64,000 bases of DNA from Bordetella parapertussis. Its GTDB lineage: Bacteria; Pseudomonadota; Gammaproteobacteria; Burkholderiales; SG8-39. The stretch is taken from the NCBI GenBank assembly GCA_945861875.1, contig CAMAWC010000004.1:4597-68596 (forward strand), read 5' to 3'. The notes beneath the pieces are model-generated. The model saw only the letters and a program-made list of their open reading frames with translations. It made no database searches and was not told the DNA's origin. Below, piece after piece: positions 1,451-18,871 of this stretch (its first letter is position 1; each line of letters starts with the position of its first letter). Position numbers and translations under genes: made by a program.

Positions 1451-1481
1451 AGTCTGTGTTCGTGGTGCCTTCCTCTTGTGC

Positions 1482-1522: not shown

Positions 1523-1596
1523 AGCGAGTGCGACGGTACGCGCAGCGTTGCCGCCGGCACAAACACGGCGGAGCGACACGCAAAGCGCGCTAAAGC

Positions 1597-2130
1597 ATGT
1601 CCAGAATACTCATTCTTTATTCGACCACCGACGGCCATACAGTGGAGATTTGCGAGCGGCTGCGGACGGTGATTGAGGCGCTCGGGCACACGGTAACGCT
1701 GGCCGGCTTTTCTTCCTTCCCCGGCGCCGAAATGGCGGGTTTTGAACGCATTGTGATCGGTGCGAGCATCCGTTACGGCAGGCACAGCCGGCAGTTGATT
1801 GAATTCATCAATCGCAACGCCGGCATCCTGAATGCCCGACCCGGTGCTTTTTTTTCAGTAAGCGTGGCCGCGCGCAAGCCCAAGAACAGCAAGCCCGGGA
1901 CAAATGCCTATATGCAGGCCTTTTTGCGCAAGGTGTCATGGCGGCCGGCGCAACTGGCTGTTTTTGCCGGCAAGATCGATTACCCGCGTTACGGTTTTTT
2001 TGACCGCCTGATGATCAGGCTGATCATGTTGGTCACCGGCGGGCCGACCGATCCGCAGGCGGTGGTGGACTTTACCGACTGGAATCAGGTTGAGGCTTTT
2101 GGCCGGACCATCGGTGGCGCTGAGGGCTAG
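1597..2130 (+). CDS. hemG: quinone-dependent protoporphyrinogen IX dehydrogenase HemG (flavodoxin-like)
   Basis: 177 aa. Flavodoxin N-terminus MSRILILYSTTDGHT. Near-colinear with E. coli HemG as I recall it (VIGASIRYG, YPRYGFFDRLMIRLIM, TDWNQV). Confidence 0.9.
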   Translation: MSRILILYSTTDGHTVEICERLRTVIEALGHTVTLAGFSSFPGAEMAGFERIVIGASIRYGRHSRQLIEFINRNAGILNARPGAFFSVSVAARKPKNSKPGTNAYMQAFLRKVSWRPAQLAVFAGKIDYPRYGFFDRLMIRLIMLVTGGPTDPQAVVDFTDWNQVEAFGRTIGGAEG

Positions 2131-2142
2131 CGCCGGTCAGGC

Positions 2143-2183
2143 TTGATCTGCATCAAAACCGGTATTGGCCGGCTTGCTAGGGT
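2143..2183 (+). promoter_or_regulatory. candidate FNR/CRP-family class II promoter of maeA
   Basis: Box TTGATCTGCATCAA 2143-2156 is a perfect 10/10 consensus. The -10-like TAGGGT 2178-2183 starts 28.5 bp from the box centre. The centre lies 105.5 bp upstream of ATG 2255. Confidence 0.7.
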
Positions 2184-2254
2184 AGGCGGCACCGTCTGTG
2201 CGTATGAACGAGGGGAGTATTCGCGCCGATCCGTATCTGTGTAGAGGAGGAAGC

Positions 2255-3907
2255 ATGAATAGCAAGCCCGGGAAGCGTGACGCTTCCGCTATGCCGCGCG
2301 GCACCGATTTGCTGCACGATCCGCTGCTCAACAAGGGCACGGCGTTTACCGCGGCCGAGCGTGACGCGCTGGGTTTGCGCGGCCTGTTGCCGCCGCATAT
2401 TCATACCCAGGAAGAGCAGATGGGCCGCATTCTGATGAACCTGCGGCAAATGCCCGATCCGCTCGACCGCTTTATAGCCCTTAACGCGCTGCACGATCGT
2501 AACGAGGCGCTGTTCTTTCGCACCATCTGCGAAAACGTCGATGAAATACAGCCGCTCATTTACACGCCCACCGTCGGGCTTGCGTGCCAGCGCTTCGGGC
2601 AGATTTTTCAGCGCCCGCGCGGCATGTTCATCAGCGCCGCCGACCGTGGCCGCATCAAGTCCATACTCGCCAACTGGCCCTACCAGGCCGGCATCATTGT
2701 CGTTACCGACGGTGAGCGCATTCTTGGCCTTGGCGACCAGGGCGCCAACGGCATGGGCATCCCGGTGGGCAAGCTCTCGCTTTATACGGCCTGTGCCGGC
2801 GTGAACCCGCGGTTGTGCCTGCCGGTGACCATCGATGTCGGTACCAATAATGAGACGCTGCTCAATGATCCTTATTACGTCGGCCTCAAGCAGCGGCGCA
2901 TTACCGGCGCCGCCTACGACGAGCTGATCGAGGAGTTTGTCACCGCCGCGAACGAGGTGTTTACCGGTGTGCTGATCCAGTTTGAGGACTTTGCCAACCA
3001 CAACGCTTTTCGCCTTCTGGCCAAATACCGCGACCGCATCTGCACCTTTAACGATGACATCCAGGGCACGGCGGCGGTGGTGCTCACCGGGCTTTTGTCG
3101 GCCTTGCGTATCACCGGCGGCAAATTGCAGGACCAGCGCCTGCTGTTTCTCGGCGCGGGTGAGGCGGCGACCGGCATTGCCGACTTGGTGGTCGCGGCCA
3201 TGGTCGCGCAAGGTGTCGCCGAGGGCGTGGCGCGGCAGTGCTGCTGGCTGGTCGATTCCAAGGGGCTGGTGGTCAAAAGCCGCGGCGATCTTGCCGCGCA
3301 AAAGAAACCCTACGCACATGAACATGCGCCTGTCGCCGAATTCCCGGCAGCGGTGCGCGCACTCAAACCGACGGCGATCATCGGTGTGGCCGCGGTGGGC
3401 GGCACCTTTACCAAGGAGGTGCTCGCCGACATGGCGCGGATCAATGCGCAACCCATCGTGTTCGCGCTGTCCAACCCGACGTCCAAGTCCGAATGCACGG
3501 CACAGCAGGCCTACGAGGGCACCGGCGGCAAGGCCTTGTTTGCCTGCGGCAGCCCCTTCGACCCGGTAACGCTGGCCGGGCGCACCTATGTGCCGCGCCA
3601 GGGCAACAACTCCTATATTTTCCCCGGCGTCGGCCTTGGCGCGATAGTCAGCCGCACGCGGCGCGTCACCGACGAGATGTTCCTTGCCGCAGCGCACACG
3701 CTGGCAGCGCAGGTGAGCGAAGCGGACCTGGCACAGGGCAGCCTGTACCCGGCGCTGGCGCGAATCCGCGAGGTGTCGGCGGCGATTGCCGCGTCGGTTG
3801 CGACGATTGCCTACGAGCGCGATCTGGCCGGCAAACCGCGTCCGGTGGACATCCAGGCCGACATCAAGTCGCACATGTACGACCCGCGCTATGAGAGTTA
3901 TGCCTAG
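2255..3907 (+). CDS. maeA: NAD-dependent malic enzyme
   Basis: ORF 2198-3907. ATG 2255 follows GGAGGA. Malic-enzyme N-terminus LHDPLLNKGTAFTAAERDALGLRGLLPP. Dinucleotide fold FLGAGEAATGIA. About 550 aa. Confidence 0.93.
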   Translation: MNSKPGKRDASAMPRGTDLLHDPLLNKGTAFTAAERDALGLRGLLPPHIHTQEEQMGRILMNLRQMPDPLDRFIALNALHDRNEALFFRTICENVDEIQPLIYTPTVGLACQRFGQIFQRPRGMFISAADRGRIKSILANWPYQAGIIVVTDGERILGLGDQGANGMGIPVGKLSLYTACAGVNPRLCLPVTIDVGTNNETLLNDPYYVGLKQRRITGAAYDELIEEFVTAANEVFTGVLIQFEDFANHNAFRLLAKYRDRICTFNDDIQGTAAVVLTGLLSALRITGGKLQDQRLLFLGAGEAATGIADLVVAAMVAQGVAEGVARQCCWLVDSKGLVVKSRGDLAAQKKPYAHEHAPVAEFPAAVRALKPTAIIGVAAVGGTFTKEVLADMARINAQPIVFALSNPTSKSECTAQQAYEGTGGKALFACGSPFDPVTLAGRTYVPRQGNNSYIFPGVGLGAIVSRTRRVTDEMFLAAAHTLAAQVSEADLAQGSLYPALARIREVSAAIAASVATIAYERDLAGKPRPVDIQADIKSHMYDPRYESYA

Positions 3908-3968
3908 AGTAGGATGTTGCCTGGAAGGGAAGAATATTTTTCAACGGAACTTCAACCAAGGAGCGCAT

Positions 3969-4256
3969 ATGAAAACCATAGCGATTGCGGCCGTCCTGGC
4001 CATTGGCGTTTTTGGAGCGGGGGCGGCGGGCGCATCCGAGGCGCTGGCCAAGAGCAGCGGCTGCCTCGGCTGCCACGCACTGGATACCACCAAGAAGGTC
4101 GGGCCGGGATTCAAGACGATAGCCACCGCAAACAAGGGCAAGGCCGATGCCGAAGCAACGATCAGCGCCAAGATCATCAGCGCCAAGGGGCACCCCAAGG
4201 TCAAGGCCGGTGATGACGACGTAAAGACCATGACAAAGTGGATTCTTACGCTGTAG
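3969..4256 (+). CDS. monohaem class I cytochrome c (c551/c552-like), periplasmic
   Basis: ATG 3969 follows AAGGAG. Signal peptide MKTIAIAAVLAIGVFGAGAAGA. Single CLGCH motif followed by KKVGPGFK. 95 aa. Confidence 0.85.
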   Translation: MKTIAIAAVLAIGVFGAGAAGASEALAKSSGCLGCHALDTTKKVGPGFKTIATANKGKADAEATISAKIISAKGHPKVKAGDDDVKTMTKWILTL

Positions 4257-4264
4257 CGATGTTT

Positions 4265-4305
4265 CCCCGCGGCCTGCACCCGGCGCAGGCCGCGGGGGTC
4301 TTTCG
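4265..4305 (+). terminator. rho-independent terminator after the cytochrome c gene
   Basis: 13-bp perfect stem ccccgcggcctgc / gcaggccgcgggg with a 7-nt loop, followed by gtctttcg. Confidence 0.6.
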
Positions 4306-4332
4306 ACAGTAATTTCATCGCGTGAGCAATTG

Positions 4333-4373
4333 TTGATCTGGCGCAAACAGGCCGCTGCGCGCTGGACTACCCT
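4333..4373 (+). promoter_or_regulatory. candidate FNR/Dnr-type class II promoter of the multihaem c::b gene
   Basis: Box TTGATCTGGCGCAA 4333-4346 (8/10) is the identical 14-mer to 19029-19042. The -10-like TACCCT 4368-4373 starts 28.5 bp from the box centre. Confidence 0.5.
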
Positions 4374-4508
4374 GCAGTCAGTTGTTCTGCGACCGGTATT
4401 GGTGTGGTGAAACTCGTGCTTGCCAGCTGGCAAGGTGATGCCAGCATCCTATAAAAAAGGGCGGCGTTTGCAGTGCTCCGTTTTCAATGTTGCAGGGGAA
4501 AAGACAAC

Positions 4509-6299
4509 ATGATGCGAATTCCGGGATCGGCTTTATTGAGGGTGACAGCTTGCCTGCTTGCCATAAGCAGTCTCGGTGCGCTGTCTGCGGGGGCCGCCGA
4601 TGCGCCGGCTGGCGCCGTCGCCCCAGTCGCAAGCACAGCGGCAACCGACAAACCGGATAACGACACCTGTCTCGCGTGTCACGGCAATGCGGGCTTCTCC
4701 GCGCCGGGAGCCGGCGGGAAGGAGCGCCCGCTGCATGTGGCGCAGGATAAATTCGGCGCCAGCTCGCACGGGAAGTTGGAGTGTGTTTCCTGCCATACCG
4801 CCATCACCGATGTTCCGCACAAGAATATCCCGGCCGAGGGCAGCCCGGCCCGCGCCGCACAGCGCAAGGGCATTCCCGAGCTTTGCGGCACCTGCCACGC
4901 CAAGCAGCGTGACGAATATGCGACTTCGGTGCACGGGCGCGAGGCCCTGGAAAAAGGCAACCCCGCAGCGGCGGTCTGCTCCGACTGCCACAAGCCCCAT
5001 GCGGTGCAGGACCCGACGGGCGATGTCGCGCGGCTGACCATCACCAAGAGCTGCGGCAGTTGCCACAAGGACATGCTCAGGACTTATACCGAAACCTATC
5101 ACGGCCAGATCAACGCCCTCGGTTACGCCAATACGGCCAAGTGCTTTGACTGCCATGGCAGTCACGGCATCCAGCGCGTCGGCGATCCTGCGTCGTCGGT
5201 GCACCGCAAGAACCGCCTCGAAACCTGCCAGAAGTGCCACATCAACGCCAGCGAGGGCTTTGCCACCTTTGCACCGCACGGCGACGCGCGCGACTTTGCC
5301 CGTTACCCGATGATCTGGTTGGCGCAAAAAATGATGGTCGGCCTGCTGGTCGGCACCTTTGCCTTCTTCTGGCTGCATACGGCCATGTGGTTTTACCGCG
5401 AATACAAGGAGCGCAGCGAGCGCAAATCGCGGCCGCAGGTGCTGGCTAGCGCCTTGCCAACCGGGACGACAGGCAAGCATTTCCAGCGCTTTAGCGCGAC
5501 CTGGCGCGTGGCCCATCTGAGCTTCGCGCTAAGCCTGATGGTGCTGACCCTCACCGGCATGCCGGTGTTTTATCCGGAAAGCAGCTGGGCACCGGCGGTG
5601 ATGAAGCTGCTGGGTGGCCCGCAGACGGCGGCGATTATCCACCGCGTGGCTGCCGTGGTCTTTGCCGGGGTGTTTTTCTGGCACCTGGGCTATGTGGCGC
5701 TGCGCCTGGCGCGCAACTGGAAAAACTTTCGTATTTTCGGCTCCGATTCGTTGATACCCGGCCTGCAGGACCTCAAGGACATTATTGCGATGTTCACTTG
5801 GTTCATCGGCAAGGGCACGCGGCCGATATTCGACCGCTGGACCTACTGGGAGAAGTTCGACTACTGGGCGCCGTTCTGGGGTGTGACCATCATCGGCGTG
5901 AGCGGCCTGATGATGTGGCTGCCCAACCTGACGGCTTCCTTCCTGCCTGGCTGGGTGTTCAACATCGCCGCGATCTTCCATGGCGAGGAGGCCTTCCTCG
6001 CGGTGGTGTTCCTGTTCACCGTGCACTTTTTCAACAACCACTTCCGGCCGGACAAGTTTCCGCTTGATATCGTCATGTTCACCGGCACCATGACGCTGGA
6101 GGCCTTCCGCCACGAGCACGGCGTGCAGTACCAGCGACTGCTCGATTCGGGGGAACTGGAGAAGCACCTCGTCGATGCGCCGTCCCAACCGATGACTCTG
6201 GGGGCGAAGATCCTGGGCACCGTGCTGATCATCGTCGGCCTGACCTTGCTGGTGTTCGTGCTGGCCGGGTTCCTGCAGGGTTTTTCGGGAGGACACTGA
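4509..6299 (+). CDS. heptahaem cytochrome c fused to a polytopic dihaem-b-like membrane domain (CbcL-like quinol/quinone oxidoreductase candidate)
   Basis: ORF 4473-6299, with ATG 4509 the likely start (MMRIPGS..., signal peptide). Seven CXXCH motifs: CLACH, CVSCH, CGTCH, CSDCH, CGSCH, CFDCH, CQKCH. About 6 hydrophobic helices follow, two carrying His pairs 14-15 residues apart. Confidence 0.85.
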   Translation: MMRIPGSALLRVTACLLAISSLGALSAGAADAPAGAVAPVASTAATDKPDNDTCLACHGNAGFSAPGAGGKERPLHVAQDKFGASSHGKLECVSCHTAITDVPHKNIPAEGSPARAAQRKGIPELCGTCHAKQRDEYATSVHGREALEKGNPAAAVCSDCHKPHAVQDPTGDVARLTITKSCGSCHKDMLRTYTETYHGQINALGYANTAKCFDCHGSHGIQRVGDPASSVHRKNRLETCQKCHINASEGFATFAPHGDARDFARYPMIWLAQKMMVGLLVGTFAFFWLHTAMWFYREYKERSERKSRPQVLASALPTGTTGKHFQRFSATWRVAHLSFALSLMVLTLTGMPVFYPESSWAPAVMKLLGGPQTAAIIHRVAAVVFAGVFFWHLGYVALRLARNWKNFRIFGSDSLIPGLQDLKDIIAMFTWFIGKGTRPIFDRWTYWEKFDYWAPFWGVTIIGVSGLMMWLPNLTASFLPGWVFNIAAIFHGEEAFLAVVFLFTVHFFNNHFRPDKFPLDIVMFTGTMTLEAFRHEHGVQYQRLLDSGELEKHLVDAPSQPMTLGAKILGTVLIIVGLTLLVFVLAGFLQGFSGGH

Positions 6300-6303
6300 C
6301 GGC

Positions 6304-6344
6304 TTGATCCATGTCAAGACGCGCGGCGCGTGGCGGTGTATTTG
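6304..6344 (+). promoter_or_regulatory. candidate FNR/CRP-family class II promoter of the c5-OFOR-frd operon
   Basis: Box TTGATCCATGTCAA 6304-6317 (9/10) is identical to the rquA box. The weaker -10-like TATTTG 6339-6344 starts 28.5 bp from the box centre. The box begins 5 bp after the upstream stop codon. Confidence 0.55.
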
Positions 6345-6384
6345 TAGAGCGTGTTGTTAGAGCGCAAACAAAGGAGGAATGATC

Positions 6385-7044
6385 ATGAGTGACAAGATGC
6401 CCGGCGTATGGCGGCAGGTGGCGGTGGTGGCGATGCTTGCCTTTGCCTTGCCCCTTGGGGCACAACAGGCGGCGGCACAGCAAGCGGCGGCCCCCAAGGC
6501 CGGCGATCGCAGCGGCAAGCAGGTGGTCGATGCCACCTGCGCCTCCTGTCACGCCAGCGGCGCCAACGGCGCGCCGAAGATCGGTGACGTCAAGGCCTGG
6601 AGCGCACGCTCCAAGCAAGGCCTGTCCAGCCTGACCAAGGAAGCCATCGGCGGTATTCGCAAAATGCCCGGGCACGGCGGCGACGCGACCCTGACCGACC
6701 TGGAAATCGGCCGTGCCGTGACCTACATGGTCAACCAGTCCGGCGGCAAGTGGACCGAACCTGCGAGTCCCAAGGACATGGCAAAAGAGCGCAGCGGCAG
6801 GCAGATTGTTGAAATGCAGTGCTACCGCTGCCATGAAAACGGCACGGGCGGGGCGCCGAAAATCGGCGACCGGCAAGCCTGGATACCGCGGGTCAGCCAG
6901 GGCTTGGATAACGTCACGCGCTCGGCCATACGCGGGCACGGCGGCATGCCGGCGCGCGGCGGCATGGCCGATGTCAGCGACACCGAGTTGCGCAACGCGA
7001 TTGCCTACATGCTCAATTACGGCACCGGCGCGGAAAAGAAATGA
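6385..7044 (+). CDS. dihaem cytochrome c, two c5-type domains
   Basis: ATG 6385 lies 6 nt after AGGAGGA. Signal peptide present. Two CXXCH motifs (CASCH, CYRCH), each followed by G..GAPKIGD..AW, which is typical of cytochrome c5. Confidence 0.85.
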   Translation: MSDKMPGVWRQVAVVAMLAFALPLGAQQAAAQQAAAPKAGDRSGKQVVDATCASCHASGANGAPKIGDVKAWSARSKQGLSSLTKEAIGGIRKMPGHGGDATLTDLEIGRAVTYMVNQSGGKWTEPASPKDMAKERSGRQIVEMQCYRCHENGTGGAPKIGDRQAWIPRVSQGLDNVTRSAIRGHGGMPARGGMADVSDTELRNAIAYMLNYGTGAEKK

Positions 7045-7081
7045 GTCTCACGGCCATGGCCTAACAGGCTGGGGGGCAACC

Positions 7082-7666
7082 ATGTTCCAGGTGCGCATTC
7101 ACGGCAGGGGCGGTCAGGGCGTGGTCTCGGCCGCGGAAATGCTCTCGGTGGCCGCATTCGACGAAGGGCGTTTCGCCCAGGCTTTCCCCAGCTTCGGTTC
7201 TGAGCGCATGGGTGCGCCGGTGATGGCCTTTTGCCGCATCGACAGGCGCGAGATCCGCTCGCGCGAACCGGTGATGCAGCCCGATGCGCTGATCATCCAG
7301 GACCCGACCCTGCTGCACCAGGTGGACTTGTTCAGCGGGCTCGCCGCCGGCGGCTTCATCCTCATTAATTCCAGGCGCAGTGCCGAGGAACTGGGCATAG
7401 CCGAACTGGCGCACGGCATCGGACACGACCACCTGTGTACGGTGCCGGCGAGTGATTTAGCCCTCAAGCACACCGGCAGGTCGATGCCCAATGCCGCGCT
7501 GCTGGGCGGGTTTGCCGCCATCACCGGGCAGTTGCACCTCGATTCGGTGACCAAGGCGATACGCGAAAAGTTTCCCGGCAAGGTGGGCGAGTCCAACGTG
7601 GCCGCCGCCGAGGCCGCCTACGAGCACGTCATGAAGGAGCGGCAATCGCCGGCTACCCATGCTTAA
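7082..7666 (+). CDS. 2-oxoacid:ferredoxin oxidoreductase, gamma subunit
   Basis: MFQVRIHGRGGQGVVSAAEMLSVAAF...FPSFGSERMGAP is the characteristic POR/KOR gamma N-terminus. 194 aa. Confidence 0.9.
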   Translation: MFQVRIHGRGGQGVVSAAEMLSVAAFDEGRFAQAFPSFGSERMGAPVMAFCRIDRREIRSREPVMQPDALIIQDPTLLHQVDLFSGLAAGGFILINSRRSAEELGIAELAHGIGHDHLCTVPASDLALKHTGRSMPNAALLGGFAAITGQLHLDSVTKAIREKFPGKVGESNVAAAEAAYEHVMKERQSPATHA

Positions 7667-8912
7667 GCAAACCGAAGGCTCACACGCCATCGCCGAAGCG
7701 GTGGCCTTATGCCGCCCGGAGGTGATTTGCGCGTACCCGATCACACCCCAGACGCACATCGTCGAGGGCCTGGGCGAGATGGTCAAGGACGGTTCCCTCA
7801 CCGGCTGCGAGTTCATCAACGTCGAGTCCGAATTCGCCGCCTTGTCGGTGGCCATAGGCTCGTCGGCCGCCGGGGCGCGCAGCTACACCGCCACGGCCAG
7901 CCAGGGCATCCTGTTCATGGCCGAGGCGGTATATAACGCCGCCGGCCTCGGCCTGCCCATCGTCATGACCATAGGCAATCGCGCCATTGGCGCACCCATC
8001 AACATCTGGAACGACCACTCGGACAGCATGTCGATGCGCGACGCCGGTTGGATACAGCTTTATGCCGAGAACAACCAGGAGGCGGCCGACCTGCACATCC
8101 AGGCGTTTCGCCTCGCTGAGGAATTGTCCTGCCCGGTGATGGTCTGCGTCGACGGTTTCATTCTGACCCACGCCTATGAGCGCGTGGACATTCCGACGCA
8201 GGCCCAGGTGGACGAATACCTGCCGCCGTTCGAACCGGTGCAGCAGCTTGACTGCGACGATCCGGTGTCCATCGGCGCCATGGTCGGGCCGGAGGCGTTT
8301 TTTGAGGTGCGTTACCTGCAGCACTACAAGCAGCAGCGCGCCCTTGAGCTCATTCCGCACTTTGCCGAGGAATTCAAGAACCTGTTCGGGCGCGAGGCCG
8401 GCGGCCTGGTGCGCGCCTACCAGTGCGACGACGCTGAAACCATCGTCGTGGCACTGGGTTCGGTCAACGGCACCATCAAGGATGTGGTCGATGAGATGCG
8501 CGCAGCGGGGCACCGCATCGGCGTGCTGACGCTGTGCTCCTTCCGGCCGTTTCCTCTGACTGCTGTGCGCACGGCGCTGATCAAGGCAAAGCGCGTGGTC
8601 GTACTGGAGAAGTCCCTCGCCGTCGGCATCGGCGGCGTGGTCTCCGATGGCGTGCGCAAGGCCTTGTCCGGCGTGGTATTGCGCGGCTACACGGTGATTG
8701 CCGGACTGGGCGGTCGCGCCATTACCGGTAAATCGCTGCGCGCCTTGTTTGAGAAGGCCGAGCGCGACGAACTCGAGATGCTCAGTTTCCTTGATCTGAA
8801 TTGGGACGTGGTCGAGCGCGAGCTCGAGCGCGGGCGGCAACAACGGCGCTCCGGACCGACCGCCGAGAACATCCTGCGCGACCTCGGTCCGGCCGGCGCG
8901 CGCATAGGCTAG
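7659..8912 (+). CDS. 2-oxoacid:ferredoxin oxidoreductase, alpha subunit
   Basis: 417 aa. EGSHAIAEAVALCRPEVICAYPITPQT is the alpha-subunit signature. The start overlaps the gamma stop codon. Confidence 0.9.
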   Translation: MLKQTEGSHAIAEAVALCRPEVICAYPITPQTHIVEGLGEMVKDGSLTGCEFINVESEFAALSVAIGSSAAGARSYTATASQGILFMAEAVYNAAGLGLPIVMTIGNRAIGAPINIWNDHSDSMSMRDAGWIQLYAENNQEAADLHIQAFRLAEELSCPVMVCVDGFILTHAYERVDIPTQAQVDEYLPPFEPVQQLDCDDPVSIGAMVGPEAFFEVRYLQHYKQQRALELIPHFAEEFKNLFGREAGGLVRAYQCDDAETIVVALGSVNGTIKDVVDEMRAAGHRIGVLTLCSFRPFPLTAVRTALIKAKRVVVLEKSLAVGIGGVVSDGVRKALSGVVLRGYTVIAGLGGRAITGKSLRALFEKAERDELEMLSFLDLNWDVVERELERGRQQRRSGPTAENILRDLGPAGARIG

Positions 8913-8923
8913 CGGGGGACATC

Positions 8924-11559: not shown

Positions 11560-11612
11560 CAAACGGCACCGCCGTATCGTGAGAACGGCGCCTGGCGGCA
11601 AGGAGAGCAGCA

Positions 11613-13403
11613 GTGGATGTGTTTAAAGCGGATGTGGCGATTGTGGGCGCGGGCGGCGCCGGCTTGCGCGCGGCCATAGCCGTGGCCGAGGCCGACCCGA
11701 AACTGGTCGTTGCGCTCATTTCCAAGGTCTACCCGATGCGCAGCCACACCGTGGCGGCCGAGGGCGGCGCGGCGGCGGTGACGCGGCCCGACGACAGCCT
11801 GGAACACCACTTCAACGACACCGTCGGTGGCGGCGACTGGTTGTGCGAGCAGGACGTGGTCGAGTACTTTGTCGCCCACGCCCACGAGGAAATGGTGCAG
11901 ATGGAACACTGGGGTTGCCCGTGGAGCCGCAAGGAGGACGGCCACGCCAACGTGCGCGCCTTTGGCGGCATGAAAATCGAGCGCACCTGGTTTGCCGCCG
12001 ACAAGACCGGCTTTCACATGTTGCACACCTTGTTTCAGACCTCGATCAAGTATCCGTCGATCAAGCGCTTTGACGAGCATTTTTGTGTCGACCTGCTGGT
12101 CGAGGACGATCGCGTCCAGGGTGTGGTGACCATCGAAAACGCCAGCGGCGAGTTCACGTTGATCCAGGCGAAATCAGTGATTATCGCGACCGGCGGCGCC
12201 GGCCGCGTGTTTCGCGAGAACACTAACGGCGGCATTGTCACCGGTGATGGCATGGCGCTCGCCTACCGCCACGGCGTGCCGCTGCGTGACATGGAATTCG
12301 TGCAATACCACCCGACCTGCATGCCCGGCACCGGGTTGCTGTTTACCGAGGCTTGCCGTGGCGAAGGCGGGTTTTTGCTCAACAAGGATGGCTATCGCTA
12401 CCTGCAGGACTACGGCCTCGGACCGGCGACGCCGGAGCCGCGCAACAAGGCGATGGAACTGGGGCCACGCGACCGCTTGAGCCAGGCCTTCTGGCACGAA
12501 AAACAAAAGGGCAGGACAGTCGACGGCCGTCACGGCGCGGTGGTGCACCTTGATTTGCGTCATATCGGCGAACAAAAGCTGCGCGAGCGCCTGCCGCAGA
12601 TTTACGAACTGGCCGAGCAATTTCTTGGCGTCGATCCGGCGCACGAACCGATTCCGGTGTTGCCGGCGGTGCACTACACCATGGGCGGCATTATCGCCGA
12701 CGGCAAGTGCGCCTCAACGCTGCCGGGGCTGTACTCGGTCGGCGAATGTTCCAGCGTCGGCATACACGGCGCCAATCGCCTCGGCTCGAACTCACTCACC
12801 GAGCTGATCGTTTTTGGCAAGGTCGCCGGTATCGAGGCGGCGCAGTACGCGCGCTCGGTCAATCACGGCGATGCTGCGACACTGGGAAAACAAGCCGATG
12901 CGGTGGCCGCAAAGGCCCTTGGGATAGCCACCGGCAATGGTGGCACGGAACGCATGGCGGTGTTGCGCACCGAAATGGCCAAAACCATGGAGGAGGGCTG
13001 CGGTATCTATCGCCTTGGCACCGAGATGCAAGCCACCTGCGACAAGATCGACGAATTGAAGCAGCGCTACCGCAACCTCAAATTGGACGATAAGTCGCGG
13101 GTCTGGAATACCGAGTGGCTGCTGGCCATTGAGCTTGGGTACCTGCTCGATGTGGCGCAGGCGATGGCTTACTCGGCCTTCAACCGCAAGGAATCGCGCG
13201 GCTCGCACCAGCGCCTGGACGGCTATGAGCAGCGCGACGATGCGAACTACCTCAAACACACGTTGGCCTATTTCAGCGGCGACGGCGCACCGCGAATCGC
13301 CTACGGTGATGTAAAAATAACCAAATCCAAACCGGGAACCCGCGCCTATGGCGCCGCCGGCGAGAAGGCCGATGCAGACCGAAAGGCAGCCGCCCATGAC
13401 TGA
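11613..13403 (+). CDS. frdA: fumarate reductase flavoprotein subunit
   Basis: GTG start. Near-colinear with E. coli FrdA as recalled (ADVAIVGAGGAGLRAAIA, SKVYPMRSHTVAAEGG, GDWLCEQDVV, HYTMGGI, GANRLGSNSL). Confidence 0.95.
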   Translation: MDVFKADVAIVGAGGAGLRAAIAVAEADPKLVVALISKVYPMRSHTVAAEGGAAAVTRPDDSLEHHFNDTVGGGDWLCEQDVVEYFVAHAHEEMVQMEHWGCPWSRKEDGHANVRAFGGMKIERTWFAADKTGFHMLHTLFQTSIKYPSIKRFDEHFCVDLLVEDDRVQGVVTIENASGEFTLIQAKSVIIATGGAGRVFRENTNGGIVTGDGMALAYRHGVPLRDMEFVQYHPTCMPGTGLLFTEACRGEGGFLLNKDGYRYLQDYGLGPATPEPRNKAMELGPRDRLSQAFWHEKQKGRTVDGRHGAVVHLDLRHIGEQKLRERLPQIYELAEQFLGVDPAHEPIPVLPAVHYTMGGIIADGKCASTLPGLYSVGECSSVGIHGANRLGSNSLTELIVFGKVAGIEAAQYARSVNHGDAATLGKQADAVAAKALGIATGNGGTERMAVLRTEMAKTMEEGCGIYRLGTEMQATCDKIDELKQRYRNLKLDDKSRVWNTEWLLAIELGYLLDVAQAMAYSAFNRKESRGSHQRLDGYEQRDDANYLKHTLAYFSGDGAPRIAYGDVKITKSKPGTRAYGAAGEKADADRKAAAHD

Positions 13404-14166
13404 GCCTGTCAAAACCATTCGCATCGAGGTGTTGCGCTACCGCCCGGAGCAGGACAGCGAGCCGGTGGTGCAGGCCTACGACGTGCCTTTTACCGACGAC
13501 ATGTCGGTGCTGCAGGGGGTGCAATACATCAAGGATTACCTTGACGGGACGCTGAGCTTTCGCTGGTCCTGCCGCATGGCGATCTGCGGCAGCTGCGGCA
13601 TGATGATTGGCGGCGTGCCCAAGCTCTCCTGCCAGACCTTTTTGCGCGACTACTACCCGGCGGGACTGCGCATTGATCCGCTGGCGCATTTTCCGATCGA
13701 GCGCGACCTGGTGGTCAACATCGAGGATTTCATCAGCAAGCTTGAAAGCATCAAGCCCTACATCGTGCCCAAGGAAGCGCGTACGCTGGAGCAGGGGGAA
13801 TACCTGCAAACGCCGGGGCAGCTGGAGCAGTTCCTGCAGTTCAGCGGCTGCATCAATTGCACGTTGTGCTACTCGGCCTGCCCGCAGTACGGGCTGGATT
13901 CAAAGTTTACCGGCCCGGGGGTGCTTGCCTTGCTGCACCGCTATAACGCCGATTCGCGCGACGGGGCGAGCGCAGAACGCATGCAGCTGGTTCACACGGA
14001 GGAAGGGGTGTGGGGCTGCACCGCGGTAGGCTATTGCTCGGAAGTCTGCCCCAAGGGTGTGGATCCCGCCAATGCGGTCAACCAGAACAAGACAGCGAGT
14101 GCGATGGACTATTTCCTCAGGTTCGTAAGGCCCCAAGGGGCTGAAAACAAGGGAGGTGCCAAATGA
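13396..14166 (+). CDS. frdB: fumarate reductase iron-sulfur subunit
   Basis: ATG 13396 overlaps the frdA stop. RWSCRMAICGSCGMM, FSGCINCTLCYSACP and GYCSEVCPKGVDP match E. coli FrdB. Confidence 0.95.
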   Translation: MTEPVKTIRIEVLRYRPEQDSEPVVQAYDVPFTDDMSVLQGVQYIKDYLDGTLSFRWSCRMAICGSCGMMIGGVPKLSCQTFLRDYYPAGLRIDPLAHFPIERDLVVNIEDFISKLESIKPYIVPKEARTLEQGEYLQTPGQLEQFLQFSGCINCTLCYSACPQYGLDSKFTGPGVLALLHRYNADSRDGASAERMQLVHTEEGVWGCTAVGYCSEVCPKGVDPANAVNQNKTASAMDYFLRFVRPQGAENKGGAK

Positions 14167-14561
14167 GTGCGCGCCGTCCGTATGTGCGCTCCATGGACGG
14201 GTGGTGGCGCCGCGACCCGTTCTTTGTCCGGTACATGGCGCGGGAAGCGACCGCGGTATTCGTCGTGGCCTATGCGGTGGTGCTGCTGGTCGGGGTTTTG
14301 CGCTTGTCGCAGGGTGAGGCCGCGTTCAACGGCTGGCTGGCGGCGCTGCGCAGTCCCGCTTCAGTGGCGTTCCACGTGTTCCTGCTGGCGATTTTTGTTT
14401 ATCACACCTGGAGCTGGTTTCGCATCATGCCCAAGACCATGCCGCTGATCCTGCCCGATGGCCGGCGCCTGCAGCCGGGGCTGATTACCGGCGCCGGGCT
14501 CGCGGTGGCCGCGGTGTTGTGCCTGGGTGGATTGCTCGTCCTGATGGGGGTGAAGCCATGA
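14163..14561 (+). CDS. frdC: fumarate reductase membrane anchor subunit C
   Basis: 132 aa with 3 TM helices. N-terminus RRPYVRSMDGWWRRDPFFVRYMAREATAV parallels E. coli FrdC ([31 protein letters not shown]). Confidence 0.9.
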   Translation: MSARRPYVRSMDGWWRRDPFFVRYMAREATAVFVVAYAVVLLVGVLRLSQGEAAFNGWLAALRSPASVAFHVFLLAIFVYHTWSWFRIMPKTMPLILPDGRRLQPGLITGAGLAVAAVLCLGGLLVLMGVKP

Positions 14562-14914
14562 AGCGCTCGAACGCGCCGATTTTCTGGTCGATGTTCGGCG
14601 CCGGCGGCATGATTTCGGCGCTGATCGGCCCGTTACTGGTGTTTGTCACCGGCATTGCCGTGCCGCTTGGCCTGCTGTTGCCGCCCGATACGATGAACTA
14701 CGCGCGCATGCTCGGTTTCGCGCAGAACTGGCTGGGCAAGGCATTCCTGTTTGCCGTCATTTCGCTGTTCATGTGGCATGGCGTGCACCGCATTTTCCAC
14801 AGCCTGCACGACATCGGCATACCTACGGGAACCCTGGCCAAACTCGCTTGTTACGGTTTTGCCCTGGCCGGTACGCTGGTAGCGGGGTATGTGCTGATAG
14901 CAATCGGATTCTAG
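14558..14914 (+). CDS. frdD: fumarate reductase membrane anchor subunit D
   Basis: ATG 14558 overlaps the frdC stop (ATGA). KRSNAPIFWSMFGAGGM parallels E. coli FrdD (KRSDEPVFWGLFGAGGM). 118 aa. Confidence 0.9.
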   Translation: MKRSNAPIFWSMFGAGGMISALIGPLLVFVTGIAVPLGLLLPPDTMNYARMLGFAQNWLGKAFLFAVISLFMWHGVHRIFHSLHDIGIPTGTLAKLACYGFALAGTLVAGYVLIAIGF

Positions 14915-14937
14915 GGGGGGCGCCACAGCGGGGAAGT

Positions 14938-14978
14938 TTGACGCAGATCAACAGGCGAGCCGGAACCTTCCCTATTCT
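14938..14978 (+). promoter_or_regulatory. candidate FNR/CRP-family class II promoter of tctBAC
   Basis: Box TTGACGCAGATCAA 14938-14951 (9/10). The -10-like TATTCT 14973-14978 starts 28.5 bp from the box centre. A short leader carrying GGAGGAGG precedes ATG 14997. Confidence 0.55.
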
Positions 14979-14996
14979 GTCCTTGGAGGAGGCTAA

Positions 14997-15488
14997 ATGG
15001 ACAATAAGGACATTCGCCCACGCCGGTCATTGGGCGCAGTATTCAGGCAGCAGGATGTCATAGGCGGTCTGGTGGTGTTTGCCGTGGGCGTGTTTGCCTT
15101 CTGGCAGTCGGCCAACCTGCCAATTGGCACACTCGGGGGCATGGGTGCCGGCATGTTGCCGCGATCTCTGGCCGTATTGCTAGGCCTTCTCGGATTGCTG
15201 CTGGCGTTGTCGGCGGCGCCCAAGGACGGGCCTGCGCTCGAAAAATTATCAATACGCGGGCCGGTATTAATCCTTGGCGCTGTCGTTGTATTCGGCTTGG
15301 CGGTACGACCCCTCGGACTTGCGGTTGCCGGACCCGTCGCCATAATGATTGGAGCCTTTGCCAGCGAAGACGTGCGCTGGCTTGAGGCGCTGGTGTTTGG
15401 CCTGCTGATCACAGCTTTTTGCACCGCCTTGTTCAAGTTCGCCCTCGGACTGCCAATTCCGCTGGCGCCGTGGCTTTTGGGTTATTGA
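14997..15488 (+). CDS. tctB: tripartite tricarboxylate transporter small membrane subunit TctB
   Basis: 163 aa with 4 hydrophobic helices, immediately upstream of tctA. Strong RBS. Confidence 0.8.
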   Translation: MDNKDIRPRRSLGAVFRQQDVIGGLVVFAVGVFAFWQSANLPIGTLGGMGAGMLPRSLAVLLGLLGLLLALSAAPKDGPALEKLSIRGPVLILGAVVVFGLAVRPLGLAVAGPVAIMIGAFASEDVRWLEALVFGLLITAFCTALFKFALGLPIPLAPWLLGY

Positions 15489-15498
15489 GGCCGGCGCC

Positions 15499-17001
15499 AT
15501 GTATGACTTGATCGCCAATCTTGGACTTGGCTTTGCCACCGCGCTGACACCGGTCAACCTGGCGCTGTGTTTTGTCGGTTGTCTGGTTGGCACCCTCGTT
15601 GGCGTTTTGCCGGGAGTGGGGCCGATCGCGACCATCGCCATGCTGATGCCGCTTACCCTCAAGGCCGAGCCGACCGGGGCGCTGATCATGCTCGCGGGCA
15701 TTTATTACGGCGCGCAATACGGTGGTTCGACCACGGCGATCCTCGTCAACATGCCCGGGGAAGTGACCTCGGTGGTGACCGCCCTCGATGGCCACATGAT
15801 GGCGAAAAACGGCCAGGCCGGCATTGCCCTCGGCACCGCCGCAATTGCTTCGTTTTTCGCCGGCACGGTTGCAACGCTGGTAATCGCCGCTATTGGCGCG
15901 CCATTGACCAAGCTGGCCCTGTTGTTCGGTCCGGCGGAGTACTTCGGGCTGATGGTGTTCGGTCTTGGTCTGGCGATCGTCCTGGCGCACGGCTCTGTGC
16001 TAAAGGCCATCATCATGGTGGTGTTCGGGCTGCTGCTTGCCACCGTCGGCACCGATCTTGAAACCGGCCAGGAGCGTCTTACGCTCGGCTTGTCCGACTT
16101 GTCTGACGGGGTTGATTTCGCCGTGCTTGCCATGGGCGTGTTCGGCATCGCCGAGATTTTGCGCAATCTGGAAAACCCGGAATCGCGCAATGTGGCGGTC
16201 GCCAAGATAGGCAAGTTGCTGCCATCCATCGACGACTTGCGCCGTTGTTTCGGTCCGATCGTACGTGCTACCGGCATTGGGTCGGTATTGGGAATCCTGC
16301 CGGGCAATGGCGCGGTGCTCGCACCCTTTGCGTCCTATACGCTGGAAAAAAAGCTGGCCAAGGATCCCTCGCGCTTCGGCAAGGGGGCGATTGAAGGCGT
16401 GGCGGGGCCGGAGGCGGCCAATAATGCCGGTGCGCAGACGGCGTTCATTCCGCTGTTGACCCTGGGCATCCCGCCCAATGCGGTGATGGCGCTGATGGTC
16501 GGGGCGATGACCATACACGGCATCATTCCCGGCCCGCAGGTGATGACCAAGGCGCCGACGCTGTTCTGGGGAATGATCGCCTCGATGTGGATAGGCAACC
16601 TGATGCTGCTCATCATCAACCTGCCGCTGGTCGGCCTTTGGGTGAGGCTGCTCAAGGTGCCCTACCGGCTCATGTCCATCACCATCCTGCTGTTTTGCAG
16701 CATCGGCATTTACTCCATCAACAACAGCCCGTCCGACGTCTACTTCACCGCATTTTTTGGTTTGGTTGGTTACGCGTTTATCAAGCTCGGCCTGGAACCT
16801 GCGCCGATGCTGCTCGGATTCGTGCTTGGCCGCCTGATGGAGGAAAAGCTCAGGCAGGCGCTGGCGCTCTCGGAGGGTAGTTTCATGACCTTTGTCGAGC
16901 GGCCGGTCGCGGCGGTGCTGCTGCTTCTAGCGCTTGTGGTGATGGTGATCGCGGTGTTGCCGGCGATGAGCAAGCGGCGTGATGAGGCGTTCCAGGAGTG
17001 A
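15499..17001 (+). CDS. tctA: tripartite tricarboxylate transporter large permease TctA
   Basis: 500-aa polytopic protein with typical TctA blocks (GVLPGVGP, YGGSTTAILVN(M)PGE, PGNGAVLA). Confidence 0.92.
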   Translation: MYDLIANLGLGFATALTPVNLALCFVGCLVGTLVGVLPGVGPIATIAMLMPLTLKAEPTGALIMLAGIYYGAQYGGSTTAILVNMPGEVTSVVTALDGHMMAKNGQAGIALGTAAIASFFAGTVATLVIAAIGAPLTKLALLFGPAEYFGLMVFGLGLAIVLAHGSVLKAIIMVVFGLLLATVGTDLETGQERLTLGLSDLSDGVDFAVLAMGVFGIAEILRNLENPESRNVAVAKIGKLLPSIDDLRRCFGPIVRATGIGSVLGILPGNGAVLAPFASYTLEKKLAKDPSRFGKGAIEGVAGPEAANNAGAQTAFIPLLTLGIPPNAVMALMVGAMTIHGIIPGPQVMTKAPTLFWGMIASMWIGNLMLLIINLPLVGLWVRLLKVPYRLMSITILLFCSIGIYSINNSPSDVYFTAFFGLVGYAFIKLGLEPAPMLLGFVLGRLMEEKLRQALALSEGSFMTFVERPVAAVLLLLALVVMVIAVLPAMSKRRDEAFQE

Positions 17002-17051
17002 AACACATAAAACGCGGTTCACAGTAGCCAGTTTTCCAAAAGGAGATAAGC

Positions 17052-18029
17052 ATGAAACGCATCCTAATTACGGCATTCGCCTTCGGTCTGTCGCTGGCGG
17101 CCACCCTGGCCCTCGGCCAAGCTTACCCATCCCGGCCTGTCACCATCATCGTTCCATTCGCCGCCGGTGGACCGACCGACATCATTGCCCGCATCGTCGG
17201 AGAATATTATTCCAAGGCGCTAGGTCAGCAGTTCGTCGTGGAGAACGTCGCCGGGGCGGGCGGTACCACCGGAATAACGCGTGGCGCACAATCCAAATCT
17301 GACGGCTACACCATCATGATGGGGCACATGGGGACGCACGGTGCGGCACCCGCACTCTACGCCAATCTCAAATACGATCCGGCCAAGGATTTCGAACCGA
17401 TCGGCCTGGTGGCGGGGACGCCGATACTGATCGTGGCGAGGAAGGATTTCCCGGCGGCAAACATGAAAGAGTTTGTGGCGCGTATCAAGGATCCTGCGGC
17501 CAAAGCCAAGCAGGCGCACGCCGGCGTCGGTTCGGTGTCCTTCACCACCTGCACGCTGCTCACTTCGCAGATAGGCGTGAAGAACATTGTTGTCGCCTAC
17601 CGCGGTACCGGACCGGCGTTGAACGACCTGGTCGGCGGCCAGGTGGACTACATGTGCGACCAGATCGTCAACCTCGTGTCGCAAGTCCAGGGCGGCGCCG
17701 TCAAGGCCTATGCCATCGCCACACCCGAGCGTTCGCCGGCGCTGCCGGATGTCCCGACCACCAAGGAGGCGGGGTTTCCCGATTATCAGGTGAGCGCCTG
17801 GAACGCATTGTTCGCGCCCAAGGGCACGCCCAAGGACATCATGGCCAAGCTCAACGAGACTCTGGTCAAGGCGCTCGACGACCCGGCCACGCGCAAGCGC
17901 CTCCTTGAACTGGGCAGCGTAATTCCGGACAAGGCGGGTCGTTCGCCCGAAGAACTCGCCGCACTGGTCAAAAACGAGGTTGCGCGCTGGACGCCGATAT
18001 TGAAGGCTGCCGGGGCAGTCGGACAGTAA
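17052..18029 (+). CDS. tctC: TctC/Bug-family periplasmic substrate-binding protein
   Basis: Signal peptide followed by YPSRPVTIIVPFAAGGPTD, the Bug-family hallmark. 325 aa. Confidence 0.9.
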   Translation: MKRILITAFAFGLSLAATLALGQAYPSRPVTIIVPFAAGGPTDIIARIVGEYYSKALGQQFVVENVAGAGGTTGITRGAQSKSDGYTIMMGHMGTHGAAPALYANLKYDPAKDFEPIGLVAGTPILIVARKDFPAANMKEFVARIKDPAAKAKQAHAGVGSVSFTTCTLLTSQIGVKNIVVAYRGTGPALNDLVGGQVDYMCDQIVNLVSQVQGGAVKAYAIATPERSPALPDVPTTKEAGFPDYQVSAWNALFAPKGTPKDIMAKLNETLVKALDDPATRKRLLELGSVIPDKAGRSPEELAALVKNEVARWTPILKAAGAVGQ

Positions 18030-18160
18030 AGCGTGCAAAAAACCCGTCGATTGCGCCGCGGCGCGCATCCGACGGCGTTGCGCCCGGCATGGTCGGGACG
18101 ATGGGCGCGCAGGCTGCTTACCTTACTTGGTTGCGGGCCGGGCCGACCCCGGATGCAGGG

Positions 18161-18871
18161 TCAGACCGAAATCACCAGCTTCTGGTACAGCCCGCCGTAG
18201 TAGGTCCGCTTGCTGATCTGTTCGGGGCGTATGCCTTCGGGCAGCCAGCTGCTGATGTCCTGCCGCCACAAGTCCATGGCAAACGGCTCAAGCCAGTCCA
18301 GCACCGGCCGGAACAGGTAGCGCAATGGGTGCAGGGGTCCGGGGAGGTGGTAGTCGACGATGACCACCTTGCCGCCGGGTTTGACCACCCTGATGGCTTC
18401 GCTGAGTGTTTTTGTGCGCACCGCCTCGGGTTGCTCGTGCAGCAGGAAAAACAGCACCGCCTGGTCGTAGCTTGCGTCGGCAAAGCCGAGCGCCGCCGAG
18501 TCACGCTGGTACAAGACCACTGGGGCGGAAGCGGGGAGTTTCTTGCGCAAATTGCCCAGCTGTATGGACAGGATATCGACCACATCCAATTCGCCGCCCG
18601 GGGCGATGCGCCCGGCGAGCATGGGGGAGAAGTTACCGTAGACGCAGGCGACCTGCAGGCTGCGCCCGGTGACGGAGGCACCGAGTTCATCCAGTGCGGC
18701 GTCGCGCAGGCGCGCGAAATTGCCCCACAGAATGGCATTCACCAGCCATTGGCGCTCAAACATGCGCACGGCATTGGGGTGGACATAAGCCCACCAATAG
18801 ACCTTTTCCAGATACGCCGGGATTGCCGCAGCCGGTAGTTCGATCGCTTTTTGTTCGCCTGCGTAAGCCAT
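18161..18871 (-). CDS. rquA: RquA-like class I methyltransferase-fold protein (candidate rhodoquinone biosynthesis enzyme)
   Basis: 236 aa with SD AGGGGGG. Methyltransferase fold with an atypical motif I, LQVACVYGNF, in place of E/DxGxGxG. Also ILWGN, FFLLHEQP, VVIVDYH, LEPFA and GGLYQK blocks that I recall as RquA-type. Confidence 0.6.
   Translation of the reverse strand: MAYAGEQKAIELPAAAIPAYLEKVYWWAYVHPNAVRMFERQWLVNAILWGNFARLRDAALDELGASVTGRSLQVACVYGNFSPMLAGRIAPGGELDVVDILSIQLGNLRKKLPASAPVVLYQRDSAALGFADASYDQAVLFFLLHEQPEAVRTKTLSEAIRVVKPGGKVVIVDYHLPGPLHPLRYLFRPVLDWLEPFAMDLWRQDISSWLPEGIRPEQISKRTYYGGLYQKLVISV

Follow-up and report, generated by a model that had tools for sequence, protein, structure and literature searches.

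Rhodoquinone is best known from Rhodospirillum and from the anaerobic mitochondria of parasites, and its role in environmental Betaproteobacteria is largely unexplored. In the rhodoquinone-using mitochondria of Ascaris and Fasciola malate is dismuted, with malic enzyme and pyruvate oxidation as one branch and rhodoquinol-dependent fumarate reduction as the other. Stairs et al. (2018; PMC5953543) reported rquA, the gene for rhodoquinone biosynthesis, within 15 genes of complex II, cytochrome, haem-biosynthesis and anaerobiosis genes, suggested operon linkage and proposed that a second complex II, different from the aerobic enzyme, works at low oxygen; in their supplementary table, rquA of Burkholderiales JOSHI_001 has MtrB/PioB and a multihaem cytochrome as neighbours. 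Zhong and Shi (2018; PMC6295460) described the CbcL/MtoC/MtrH family as quinol oxidases or quinone reductases for extracellular electron transfer, with 3-23 CX2CH motifs, a HydC/FdnI-like b domain, about six transmembrane helices and conserved His, encoded beside mtrAB/mtoAB; rhodoquinone and ubiquinone are not mentioned in that paper (0 occurrences). A 2024 survey of Pseudomonadota quinones in ISME J (PMC11707229) found that rhodoquinone rarely occurs with menaquinone and that most rquA genes are betaproteobacterial, analysed FNR sites for ubiTUV only, and called the genes accompanying the low-potential quinone 'worth investigating'. Here we describe a 17-kb island in a 64-kb stretch of contig CAMAWC010000004.1 (the window), in which rquA lies with a fumarate reductase operon (frdABCD), a cytochrome group that includes a fusion of c- and b-type haem domains (c::b), a 2-oxoacid oxidoreductase (porCAB and a gltD::porD fusion), malic enzyme (maeA), hemG and a tripartite transporter (tctBAC).

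We consider it fairly probable that the island serves respiration and redox balancing as a module that is induced under anaerobic conditions and centred on rhodoquinone. It comprises 16 plus-strand genes (1597-18029) and a convergent minus-strand rquA, 17 genes in about 17 kb, where an earlier note on this DNA had counted 17 plus-strand genes besides rquA; with its outermost FNR-type boxes it covers 1482-18974 of the window. Genes were called from a mechanical listing of open reading frames (ORFs), a filter on GC at the third codon position and Pfam and NCBIfam scans, and the matches bore out all gene identities given in that note (Table 1). The frd genes form an E. coli-type operon in the order A-B-C-D with two haem-less anchors. 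Aligned to E. coli 1kf6_C, FrdC keeps Arg28-Glu29 (YMAREATAV versus YMLREGTAV), the residues of the proximal quinol site, in which Glu29 plays a role. Because rquA adjoins the operon and control is of the FNR type, we infer that FrdABCD works as a fumarate reductase on a low-potential quinol. For RquA, the runner-up family (MenG/UbiE) reached only 39 bits. The protein has a class I methyltransferase fold (Pfam Methyltransf_25/11) with a degenerate S-adenosylmethionine-binding motif I (LQVACVYGNF, not of the GxGxG type), a described feature of RquA (Lonjers 2012; Stairs et al. 2018, PMC5953543), and is predicted to convert ubiquinone to rhodoquinone.

The FNR-type palindrome TTGAT-N4-ATCAA, with at most one mismatch, occurs nine times in the 64 kb against 1.21 expected, a count reached in 0 of 100 shuffles, and five of the nine sites fall in the roughly 1 kb of intergenic DNA of the island (Table 1); the boxes claimed earlier are thus real and enriched. 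When two mismatches were allowed, 23 sites were found window-wide and 15 were expected by chance, which is not a clear excess, and the weaker site before the c::b gene, whose 14-mer is repeated identically at 19029-19042, is therefore weak evidence when taken alone. The island appears to consist of six transcription units, namely hemG, maeA with the small cytochrome c gene, c::b, the long unit from the dihaem cytochrome gene through porCAB and gltD::porD to frdABCD, tctBAC, and rquA. The claim that every transcription unit is preceded by an FNR box holds for these six, five with a good box and one with the weaker site. No box was found before the small cytochrome c gene, porC and frdA, where the gaps to the preceding genes are 37-61 bp. 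Folding of the gaps before porC and frdA gave no significant hairpin in either. Since frdABCD begins 53 bp after gltD::porD, with neither a box nor a hairpin in the gap, the two are probably one transcript. The hairpin after the small cytochrome c gene is the likely terminator of the maeA unit, and the terminator scan passed over it because its U-tract is poor. A -10-like hexamer (TATACT) can be read on the minus strand at 18929-18934, on the rquA side.

Table 1. Features of the island, with positions in the window; cut-offs are those of the models named
Feature	Position	Strand	Matches and remarks
hemG, flavodoxin-like quinone-dependent protoporphyrinogen IX dehydrogenase	1597-2130	+	Pfam Flavodoxin_5 145 bits; NF008316 equivalog 193.5 (cut-off 142)
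maeA, NAD(P)-dependent malic enzyme	2256-3907	+	Pfam malic and Malic_M; NF010052 718 bits
Monohaem class I cytochrome c, 95 aa, c551/MtoD-like	3969-4256	+	One CXXCH; signal peptide
7-haem c::dihaem-b fusion (c::b), 596 aa	4509-6299	+	Multihaem Pfam; FdnI-like TIGR01583, E 1.4e-7
Periplasmic dihaem cytochrome, two c5/c555-type domains	6385-7044	+	Pfam Cytochrome_CBB3 twice; two CXXCH
porC, 2-oxoacid:acceptor oxidoreductase gamma	7082-7666	+	Pfam POR; TIGR02175 192 bits (cut-off 81)
porA, alpha	7659-8912	+	Pfam POR_N and PFOR_II; best NCBIfam model is pyruvate-type PorA, below equivalog cut-offs
porB, beta, thiamine-diphosphate-binding	8924-9925	+	Pfam TPP_enzyme_C; PorB NF008819 338 bits, below cut-off
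gltD::porD, GltD/NfnB-like FAD/NAD(P)H oxidoreductase fused to PorD (2x[4Fe-4S])	9922-11559	+	Pfam Fer4_20, Pyr_redox_2 and Fer4
frdA, quinol:fumarate reductase flavoprotein	11613-13403	+	NF006686 1046 bits (cut-off 854); TIGR01176 959 (cut-off 933)
frdB, iron-sulfur subunit	13408-14166	+	NF009051 404 bits (cut-off 333)
frdC, membrane anchor	14163-14561	+	Pfam Fumarate_red_C 142 bits; NCBIfam 94, below cut-off 143
frdD, membrane anchor	14558-14914	+	Pfam Fumarate_red_D 146 bits; NF003977 139 (cut-off 60); 1kf6_D 99 bits
tctB, tripartite tricarboxylate-type transporter	14997-15488	+	Pfam TctB 63 bits
tctA, same transporter	15499-17001	+	Pfam TctA 501 bits
tctC, same transporter	17052-18029	+	Pfam TctC 205 bits
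rquA, rhodoquinone biosynthesis	18161-18871	-	NF038261 equivalog 300.8 bits (cut-off 175); convergent on tctC
FNR-type palindrome TTGATCCAGGTCAA	1482-1495		1 mismatch; 102 bp 5' of hemG
FNR-type palindrome TTGATCTGCATCAA	2143-2156		Perfect, 0 mismatches; 5' of maeA
Weaker FNR-like site TTGATCTGGCGCAA	4333-4346		2 mismatches; 5' of c::b
FNR-type palindrome TTGATCCATGTCAA	6304-6317		5' of the dihaem-porCAB-gltD-frdABCD unit
FNR-type palindrome TTGACGCAGATCAA	14938-14951		5' of tctB
FNR-type palindrome TTGATCCATGTCAA	18961-18974		90 bp 5' of rquA, between it and the divergent kinase gene (19097-20737)
GC-rich hairpin	4264-4298	+	14-bp stem, then GUCUUUC; -36.3 kcal/mol, z = -4.85; after the small cytochrome c gene

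Metagenome contigs that are collinear with the window at 88-97% nucleotide identity together span the whole island; for L084, L090 and L091 the identity over the island is 94-97%. L084, L085 and L086 (c::b protein 96% by BLASTP) correspond to window 47-11030, and L089, L090 and L091 (RquA 96% identical) to 10079-28867. The boxes are kept in them: that of maeA is identical in L084 at 6592, the 6304 box lies in L084 at 10660, and the equivalent of the tctB box is present in L091 at 12079. The sole difference is a 4.8-kb segment of L084 (1479-5953), between a hydrolase gene and hemG, that encodes an fnr-like regulator, a decahaem cytochrome of the mtrA type and a porin of the mtrB/pioB type directly upstream of hemG. 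In its place the window has 178 unrelated bases (1419-1596) that include the 1482 box, and a derivation of the hemG promoter from the mtrA promoter of the sister strain was rejected, as the two show no similarity. HemG is 80% identical to its L084 counterpart, compared to 92-100% for the neighbouring proteins, a pattern that suggests that recombination took place at this left end of the island. Outside the island, an FNR-type box TTGACCTGAATCAA at 25759-25772, 75 bp 5' of a glyoxalase/VOC-family gene (25847-26887), is also kept in L091.

The proposed coupling of rquA, frdABCD and the haem module is backed by other lineages, where these genes repeatedly lie together in differing arrangements. 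The RquA loci came from a metagenome scan (80 loci) and four look-ups, and most of the contigs were short, often too short to judge. Even so, frdABCD directly adjoins rquA in 22 of the 81 non-close RquA loci, either convergent with it or with rquA upstream or downstream of frd. Fourteen loci had at least 3 kb on both sides of rquA, and there frd was found in six, mtrAB/cymA in seven, c::b in three and any of these in nine. Seven independent c::b contexts had mtrAB in four or five cases, rquA in three, frdABCD in two and malic enzyme in one. Strikingly similar sets of genes stand in differing orders: c::b, cytochrome c, hemG, dihaem, rquA, frdABCD in L157; mtrB, mtrA, c::b, rquA, dihaem, frdABCD in L170; rquA, frdDCBA, cytochrome c, c::b in L087; mtrAB, rquA, mtrAB, c::b in L173; and cymA-mtrA-mtrB-frdABCD facing rquA in L082. 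Of 71 other loci, 25 have FNR-type boxes upstream of rquA, at 1.0 per kb compared to 0.079 per kb elsewhere in the same loci (about 12-fold), and such boxes also precede the c::b genes in L169-L172. Both the recurrent clustering of rquA, frd, mtoC and mtrAB and the enrichment of FNR boxes at rquA across lineages apparently have not been described before. As a side observation, the gene of an amino-oxidase/HemY-like FAD protein (L087, 4036-5427) overlaps the rquA stop codon, and a fragmented HemY-like gene lies just upstream of the c::b homologue in L169 (8435-9827); the protein may be another haem-biosynthesis or quinone-linked partner.

These contexts lead us to a wider proposal, which we hold tentatively and at somewhat less than an even chance. 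In Betaproteobacteria that have ubiquinone and not menaquinone, the rhodoquinone made by RquA would be a dedicated low-potential quinone for extracellular electron transfer, through bc-cytochromes of the MtoC/MtrH type and MtrAB/MtoAB, and for fumarate reductase. The genes rquA, frdABCD, mtoC, mtoD, dihaem c5 and mtrAB would form a recurrent supercluster controlled by the FNR family, and the variant in the window would have captured a donor branch consisting of malic enzyme, the NAD(P)-linked oxidoreductase and Tct.

For the oxidoreductase, GTDB species representatives were scanned with GltD::PorD, and the 80 closest loci (72-81% identity, +-10 kb) were examined by tblastn with all island proteins. 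They belong to Usitatibacteraceae, Casimicrobiaceae, Gallionellaceae, Sideroxydans, Noviherbaspirillum, Accumulibacter, Propionivibrio and others. The order porC-porA-porB-gltD::porD is kept in 63-77 of the 80, maeA is immediately downstream in 18-20 (at -77 to +56 bp from gltD::porD in 18) and hemG is adjacent in one; boxes stand upstream of porC in 15 of 62 loci (0.65 per kb compared to 0.044 per kb). Synteny of the gene set, which the earlier note had proposed to check, was thus found for the whole island in near-identical relatives, and in the species representatives only for the four-gene oxidoreductase operon with or without maeA. A widely conserved 17-kb unit was therefore rejected. The island is thus put together, in a lineage-specific way, from two modules that are each conserved on their own and are joined only sporadically elsewhere. 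Module A is malic enzyme and a Por-type oxidoreductase whose delta subunit is fused to an NfnB/GltD-like flavoprotein; module B is rquA, frdABCD, the MtoC/MtoD-like pair and the dihaem c5, often with mtrAB in relatives. Only in this lineage is frdABCD placed together with the oxidoreductase genes in one tight unit.

It is unlikely, with perhaps a modest chance, that the assembly is a mere lineage-specific pile-up of independent anaerobic operons, in which only rquA-frdABCD and the cytochromes form a functional unit while the oxidoreductase with maeA, Tct and HemG serve general anaerobic metabolism. That porCAB-gltD::porD with or without maeA stands alone in 80 of 80 species representatives would be expected in that case, as would the variable left edge with its 4.8-kb fnr-mtrAB indel and the occurrence of tctBA beside frd in the 96% relatives only, with tctC paralogues scattered in the window. 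However, the 53-bp junction of gltD::porD and frdABCD probably lies within one transcript, one type of box is common to all units, and joins arose independently elsewhere: gltD::porD is directly followed by rquA in L161, maeA is beside frdD in L159, hemG is beside porC in L001 and beside rquA in L157, and maeA is 4 kb from a c::b gene in the contig found with P0134.

The small cytochrome c is encoded in the distal stretch of ORF 3786-4256, and ORF 3914-4213 is out of frame and not the gene. Its PDB matches are c551 (1dvv, 48.6 bits) and 4xxl_A (38.4 bits), an entry titled just 'cytochrome c class I' that we take to be MtoD of Sideroxydans. The protein aligns to c551 but has GHPKV in place of the loop of the methionine haem ligand, and its haem may be His/His-ligated. 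The c::b protein has a signal peptide, exactly seven CXXCH motifs at residues 54-244 and a hydrophobic C-terminal half, in which FdnI models matched with E 1e-7, far under their cut-offs; PF01292 is found in many homologues. A simple hydropathy scan gave five clear transmembrane helices with several His inside, and the comparison to solved structures returned only weak multihaem matches. From its architecture and context, we assign this protein provisionally to the CbcL/MtoC/MtrH family of quinol:cytochrome c oxidoreductases. The dihaem cytochrome ORF opens at 6379, and its PDB matches are c555, c556 and c5. The small cytochrome c gene adjoins c::b in the window, and clustering of c::b with mtrAB was seen in L084, L170, L172, L173 and L147, not in the window. 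What had been called an extra haem wire is more exactly an MtoC/MtoD-like segment, located in the inner membrane and periplasm, of a porin-cytochrome pathway; in L084, mtrAB is found directly upstream of hemG.

On the donor side, alpha, beta, gamma and delta subunits of the oxidoreductase are all encoded. The maeA ORF begins at 2198, and the start codon was placed at 2256, where an ATG has a Shine-Dalgarno sequence; this gives 550 aa, equal to the gene call in L084, and the start of porB was set by the 333-aa gene called there. In the 545-aa GltD::PorD, residues 36-430 are GltD/NfnB-like (NF009410 782 bits; NfnB 4ylf_B 228 bits) and residues 486-544 approximately are the PorD delta subunit (TIGR02179 67 bits, cut-off 60; PFOR delta 9bt4_G 62 bits). 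This upholds the view that the GltD-like protein serves the oxidoreductase as its NAD(P)H module and implies that NAD(P)+ would be the electron acceptor by way of the fused flavoprotein. Because maeA is repeatedly linked to gltD::porD, pyruvate is favoured as the substrate. For Tct, we noted three further orphan tctC-family genes in the window (24102-25190, about 28216 and about 37324); scattered tctC genes are typical of the expanded betaproteobacterial 'Bug' family and call for caution in deducing a substrate from TctC alone.

If the island works as a rhodoquinone-centred module, a drop in oxygen would let an activator of the FNR/FixK/FtrB type turn on the six units, and RquA would turn some of the ubiquinone into rhodoquinone (about -63 mV) and so provide a low-potential quinol. 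The host lineage probably lacks menaquinone. The well-studied counterparts of module B and of HemG (E. coli Frd and HemG; Geobacter CbcL) use menaquinol or menaquinone, and the NCBIfam title of the HemG model reads 'menaquinone-dependent'. Rhodoquinol would thus serve enzymes that menaquinol feeds in other bacteria, and since rhodoquinone and menaquinone rarely co-occur and most rquA genes are betaproteobacterial, a low-potential quinol supplied by RquA is the most economical mechanism. FrdABCD would reduce fumarate to succinate with rhodoquinol, the 7-haem c::b protein would hand electrons to the periplasmic monohaem and dihaem cytochromes and, in the sister strain, onward to an MtrAB outer-membrane conduit, and HemG would feed electrons from oxygen-independent protoporphyrinogen oxidation into the rhodoquinone pool. 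Carboxylates imported by TctABC would supply the reducing side. Malic enzyme would yield pyruvate, which PorCAB with the PorD::GltD/NfnB-like flavoprotein would oxidize to acetyl-CoA, giving NAD(P)H instead of free reduced ferredoxin, and NADH would reduce rhodoquinone through complex I, encoded elsewhere. The net process would be a malate/fumarate dismutation with an extra periplasmic or extracellular outlet.

The direction of module A deserves consideration. Both malic enzyme and 2-oxoacid oxidoreductases of this class can run in either direction, and the flavoprotein resembles the bifurcating NfnB subunit. The same operon is found in autotrophic Gallionellaceae and Sideroxydans and in metagenome-assembled genomes (MAGs) of Accumulibacter and Propionivibrio. 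We nevertheless think it improbable that an NAD(P)H-driven pyruvate synthase and malic enzyme acting as a carboxylase would build succinate from acetyl-CoA and CO2 through malate and fumarate, as an electron sink or for anaplerosis. By established thermodynamics, making pyruvate with NAD(P)H (about -320 mV) is strongly unfavourable unless bifurcation or some other drive helps, the acetyl-CoA/pyruvate couple being at about -500 mV; the operon encodes no second electron-input module, and a carboxylate importer better fits substrate uptake. The oxidative direction is thermodynamically favoured. A reversed flow at the other end, in which the MtoD/MtoC-like cytochromes (with MtoAB in relatives) oxidize extracellular Fe(II) or a periplasmic donor and reduce rhodoquinone so that FrdABCD respires fumarate, fits the resemblance of the small cytochrome to MtoD, the cymA-mtrA-mtrB-frdABCD array on one strand beside rquA in L082, and the presence of CbcL/MtoC/MtrH homologues in both Fe(II) oxidizers and Fe(III) reducers, whose direction is not readable from sequence (PMC6295460), but is hardly to be expected, as reduction of a -63 mV quinone by Fe(II) is at best energetically marginal, the window has no mtrAB and the genes for organic-acid oxidation already give a donor.

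Several points weigh against the rhodoquinone-centred interpretation. Every functional step is inferred from sequence, and 64 kb cannot reveal an absence of menaquinone genes in the host. The frdCD, c::b, rquA and tctBA genes were not found within 10 kb in any of the 80 GltD::PorD loci; because frdCD and rquA are absent there, the oxidoreductase is not generally tied to rhodoquinone. The best models for PorA, PorB and PorC are of the pyruvate type, all under their equivalog cut-offs, so that pyruvate is a candidate substrate, and binding proteins of the TctC family have very diverse ligands. No mtrAB, cymA, fnr-like or other Crp/FNR gene was found anywhere in the window, and scans for consensus sigma-70 promoters and intrinsic terminators found no more than chance. 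The sister contig L084 does have a Crp/FNR-family gene at the left edge of the island, with the E--SR recognition helix. Its protein has no N-terminal Cys cluster of true FNR and scores best, below the cut-off, with FtrB, and for these reasons the inducing signal may not be oxygen itself.

The island lies in the chromosome of an uncultured betaproteobacterium whose nearest named relatives are MAGs of Usitatibacteraceae and Casimicrobiaceae. The remaining window is housekeeping chromosome (leuCDB, asd, trpBA, accD, folC, purF). GC is even, at 0.60-0.65, over the island and its flanks, so that nothing in the composition points to a recent horizontal acquisition. An Rfam scan gave no RNA-family match inside the island, and no tandem repeats scoring at least 80 were detected. 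Divergent from rquA is the plus-strand gene of a 546-aa protein that combines a phosphotransferase (APH) domain with an AAA_33 kinase domain (19097-20737). This pairing also occurs in L081, L083, L093, L090 and L091, including several other lineages, in which genes for a 158-aa hypothetical protein and a hemerythrin are often downstream of rquA. Farther away, a perfect 92-nt direct duplication (26905-26996 and 27032-27123, spacing 127 nt) is placed between glyoxalase-family and APH-family genes and is found in L090 too, an N6/N4 DNA methyltransferase gene (56442-57206) sits between trpB and trpA, and a SAM-II riboswitch match (RF00521) just 3' of purF (62978-63051) is barely above the gathering threshold (36.6 bits versus 36).

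If the interpretation is true, the island would be a compact bacterial model of rhodoquinone-dependent malate dismutation, and rquA would belong to an anaerobic regulon of the FNR family across lineages. It would also explain how bacteria with only ubiquinone run FrdABCD, HemG and quinol oxidases of the CbcL/MtoC class (iron or electrode respiration), which use menaquinol elsewhere. The earlier note knew of no description of this combination as one genetic unit. The rquA-complex II core (Stairs et al. 2018) and the c::b family (Zhong and Shi 2018) are published, and the 17-kb assembly is what is lineage-specific; the extended assembly and its regulation were not found in the open-access texts. 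In those texts we also found nothing that connects rhodoquinone with extracellular electron transfer, with Accumulibacter or with Rhodoferax ferrireducens, or rquA with FNR sites, and nothing that describes the GltD-PorD fusion.

Like the neighbourhoods of Stairs et al., the island groups rquA with a fumarate reductase operon, with cytochromes and with a gene of haem biosynthesis. In contrast to them, it is a block of 17 genes to which malic enzyme, a Tct importer and an NAD(P)-linked oxidoreductase also belong, and the oxidoreductase and frdABCD genes appear to share a transcript; FNR-type boxes at rquA and a systematic link to MtoC/MtrAB are not discussed in their paper, where MtrB appears in the supplementary table only. 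With the CbcL/MtoC/MtrH family the island c::b protein shares an N-terminal multihaem c part, a neighbouring gene for a small class I cytochrome c, probably a HydC/FdnI-like b domain at the C-terminus and, in the sister contig and several homologue contexts, adjacent mtrAB. It has seven haem motifs compared to nine in Geobacter CbcL, no mtrAB accompanies it in the window, and its position among rquA and frd implies rhodoquinol rather than menaquinol as its partner. The FrdABCD of E. coli (PDB 1KF6; FNR-activated, menaquinol) has the same four-subunit architecture and gene order, and an FNR-type site would control the island unit too. Island FrdA, FrdB and FrdD are matched at the equivalog level and FrdC keeps its Arg-Glu pair, whereas FrdC is below the NCBIfam cut-off, the box is five genes upstream and the host probably has ubiquinone and rhodoquinone, not menaquinone.

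For the oxidoreductase, the closest counterpart is the NAD+-dependent phenylglyoxylate dehydrogenase PadEFGHI of Azoarcus/Aromatoleum (NF045762/64/66), likewise a betaproteobacterial multi-subunit 2-oxoacid oxidoreductase with a GltD-type flavoprotein and a ferredoxin-like subunit. Unlike in Pad, flavoprotein and delta subunit are fused in one polypeptide in the island, the subunits match pyruvate-type Por best with Pad scores far below cut-offs, and the link to maeA points to pyruvate. Compared to the mitochondria of Ascaris and Fasciola, the island has a Por-type oxidoreductase in place of pyruvate dehydrogenase and a type D FrdABCD in place of a mitochondrial complex II isoform, and fumarase and complex I are not encoded in it. 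Like those mitochondria, it pairs a branch of malic enzyme and pyruvate oxidation with a predicted branch from rhodoquinol to fumarate.

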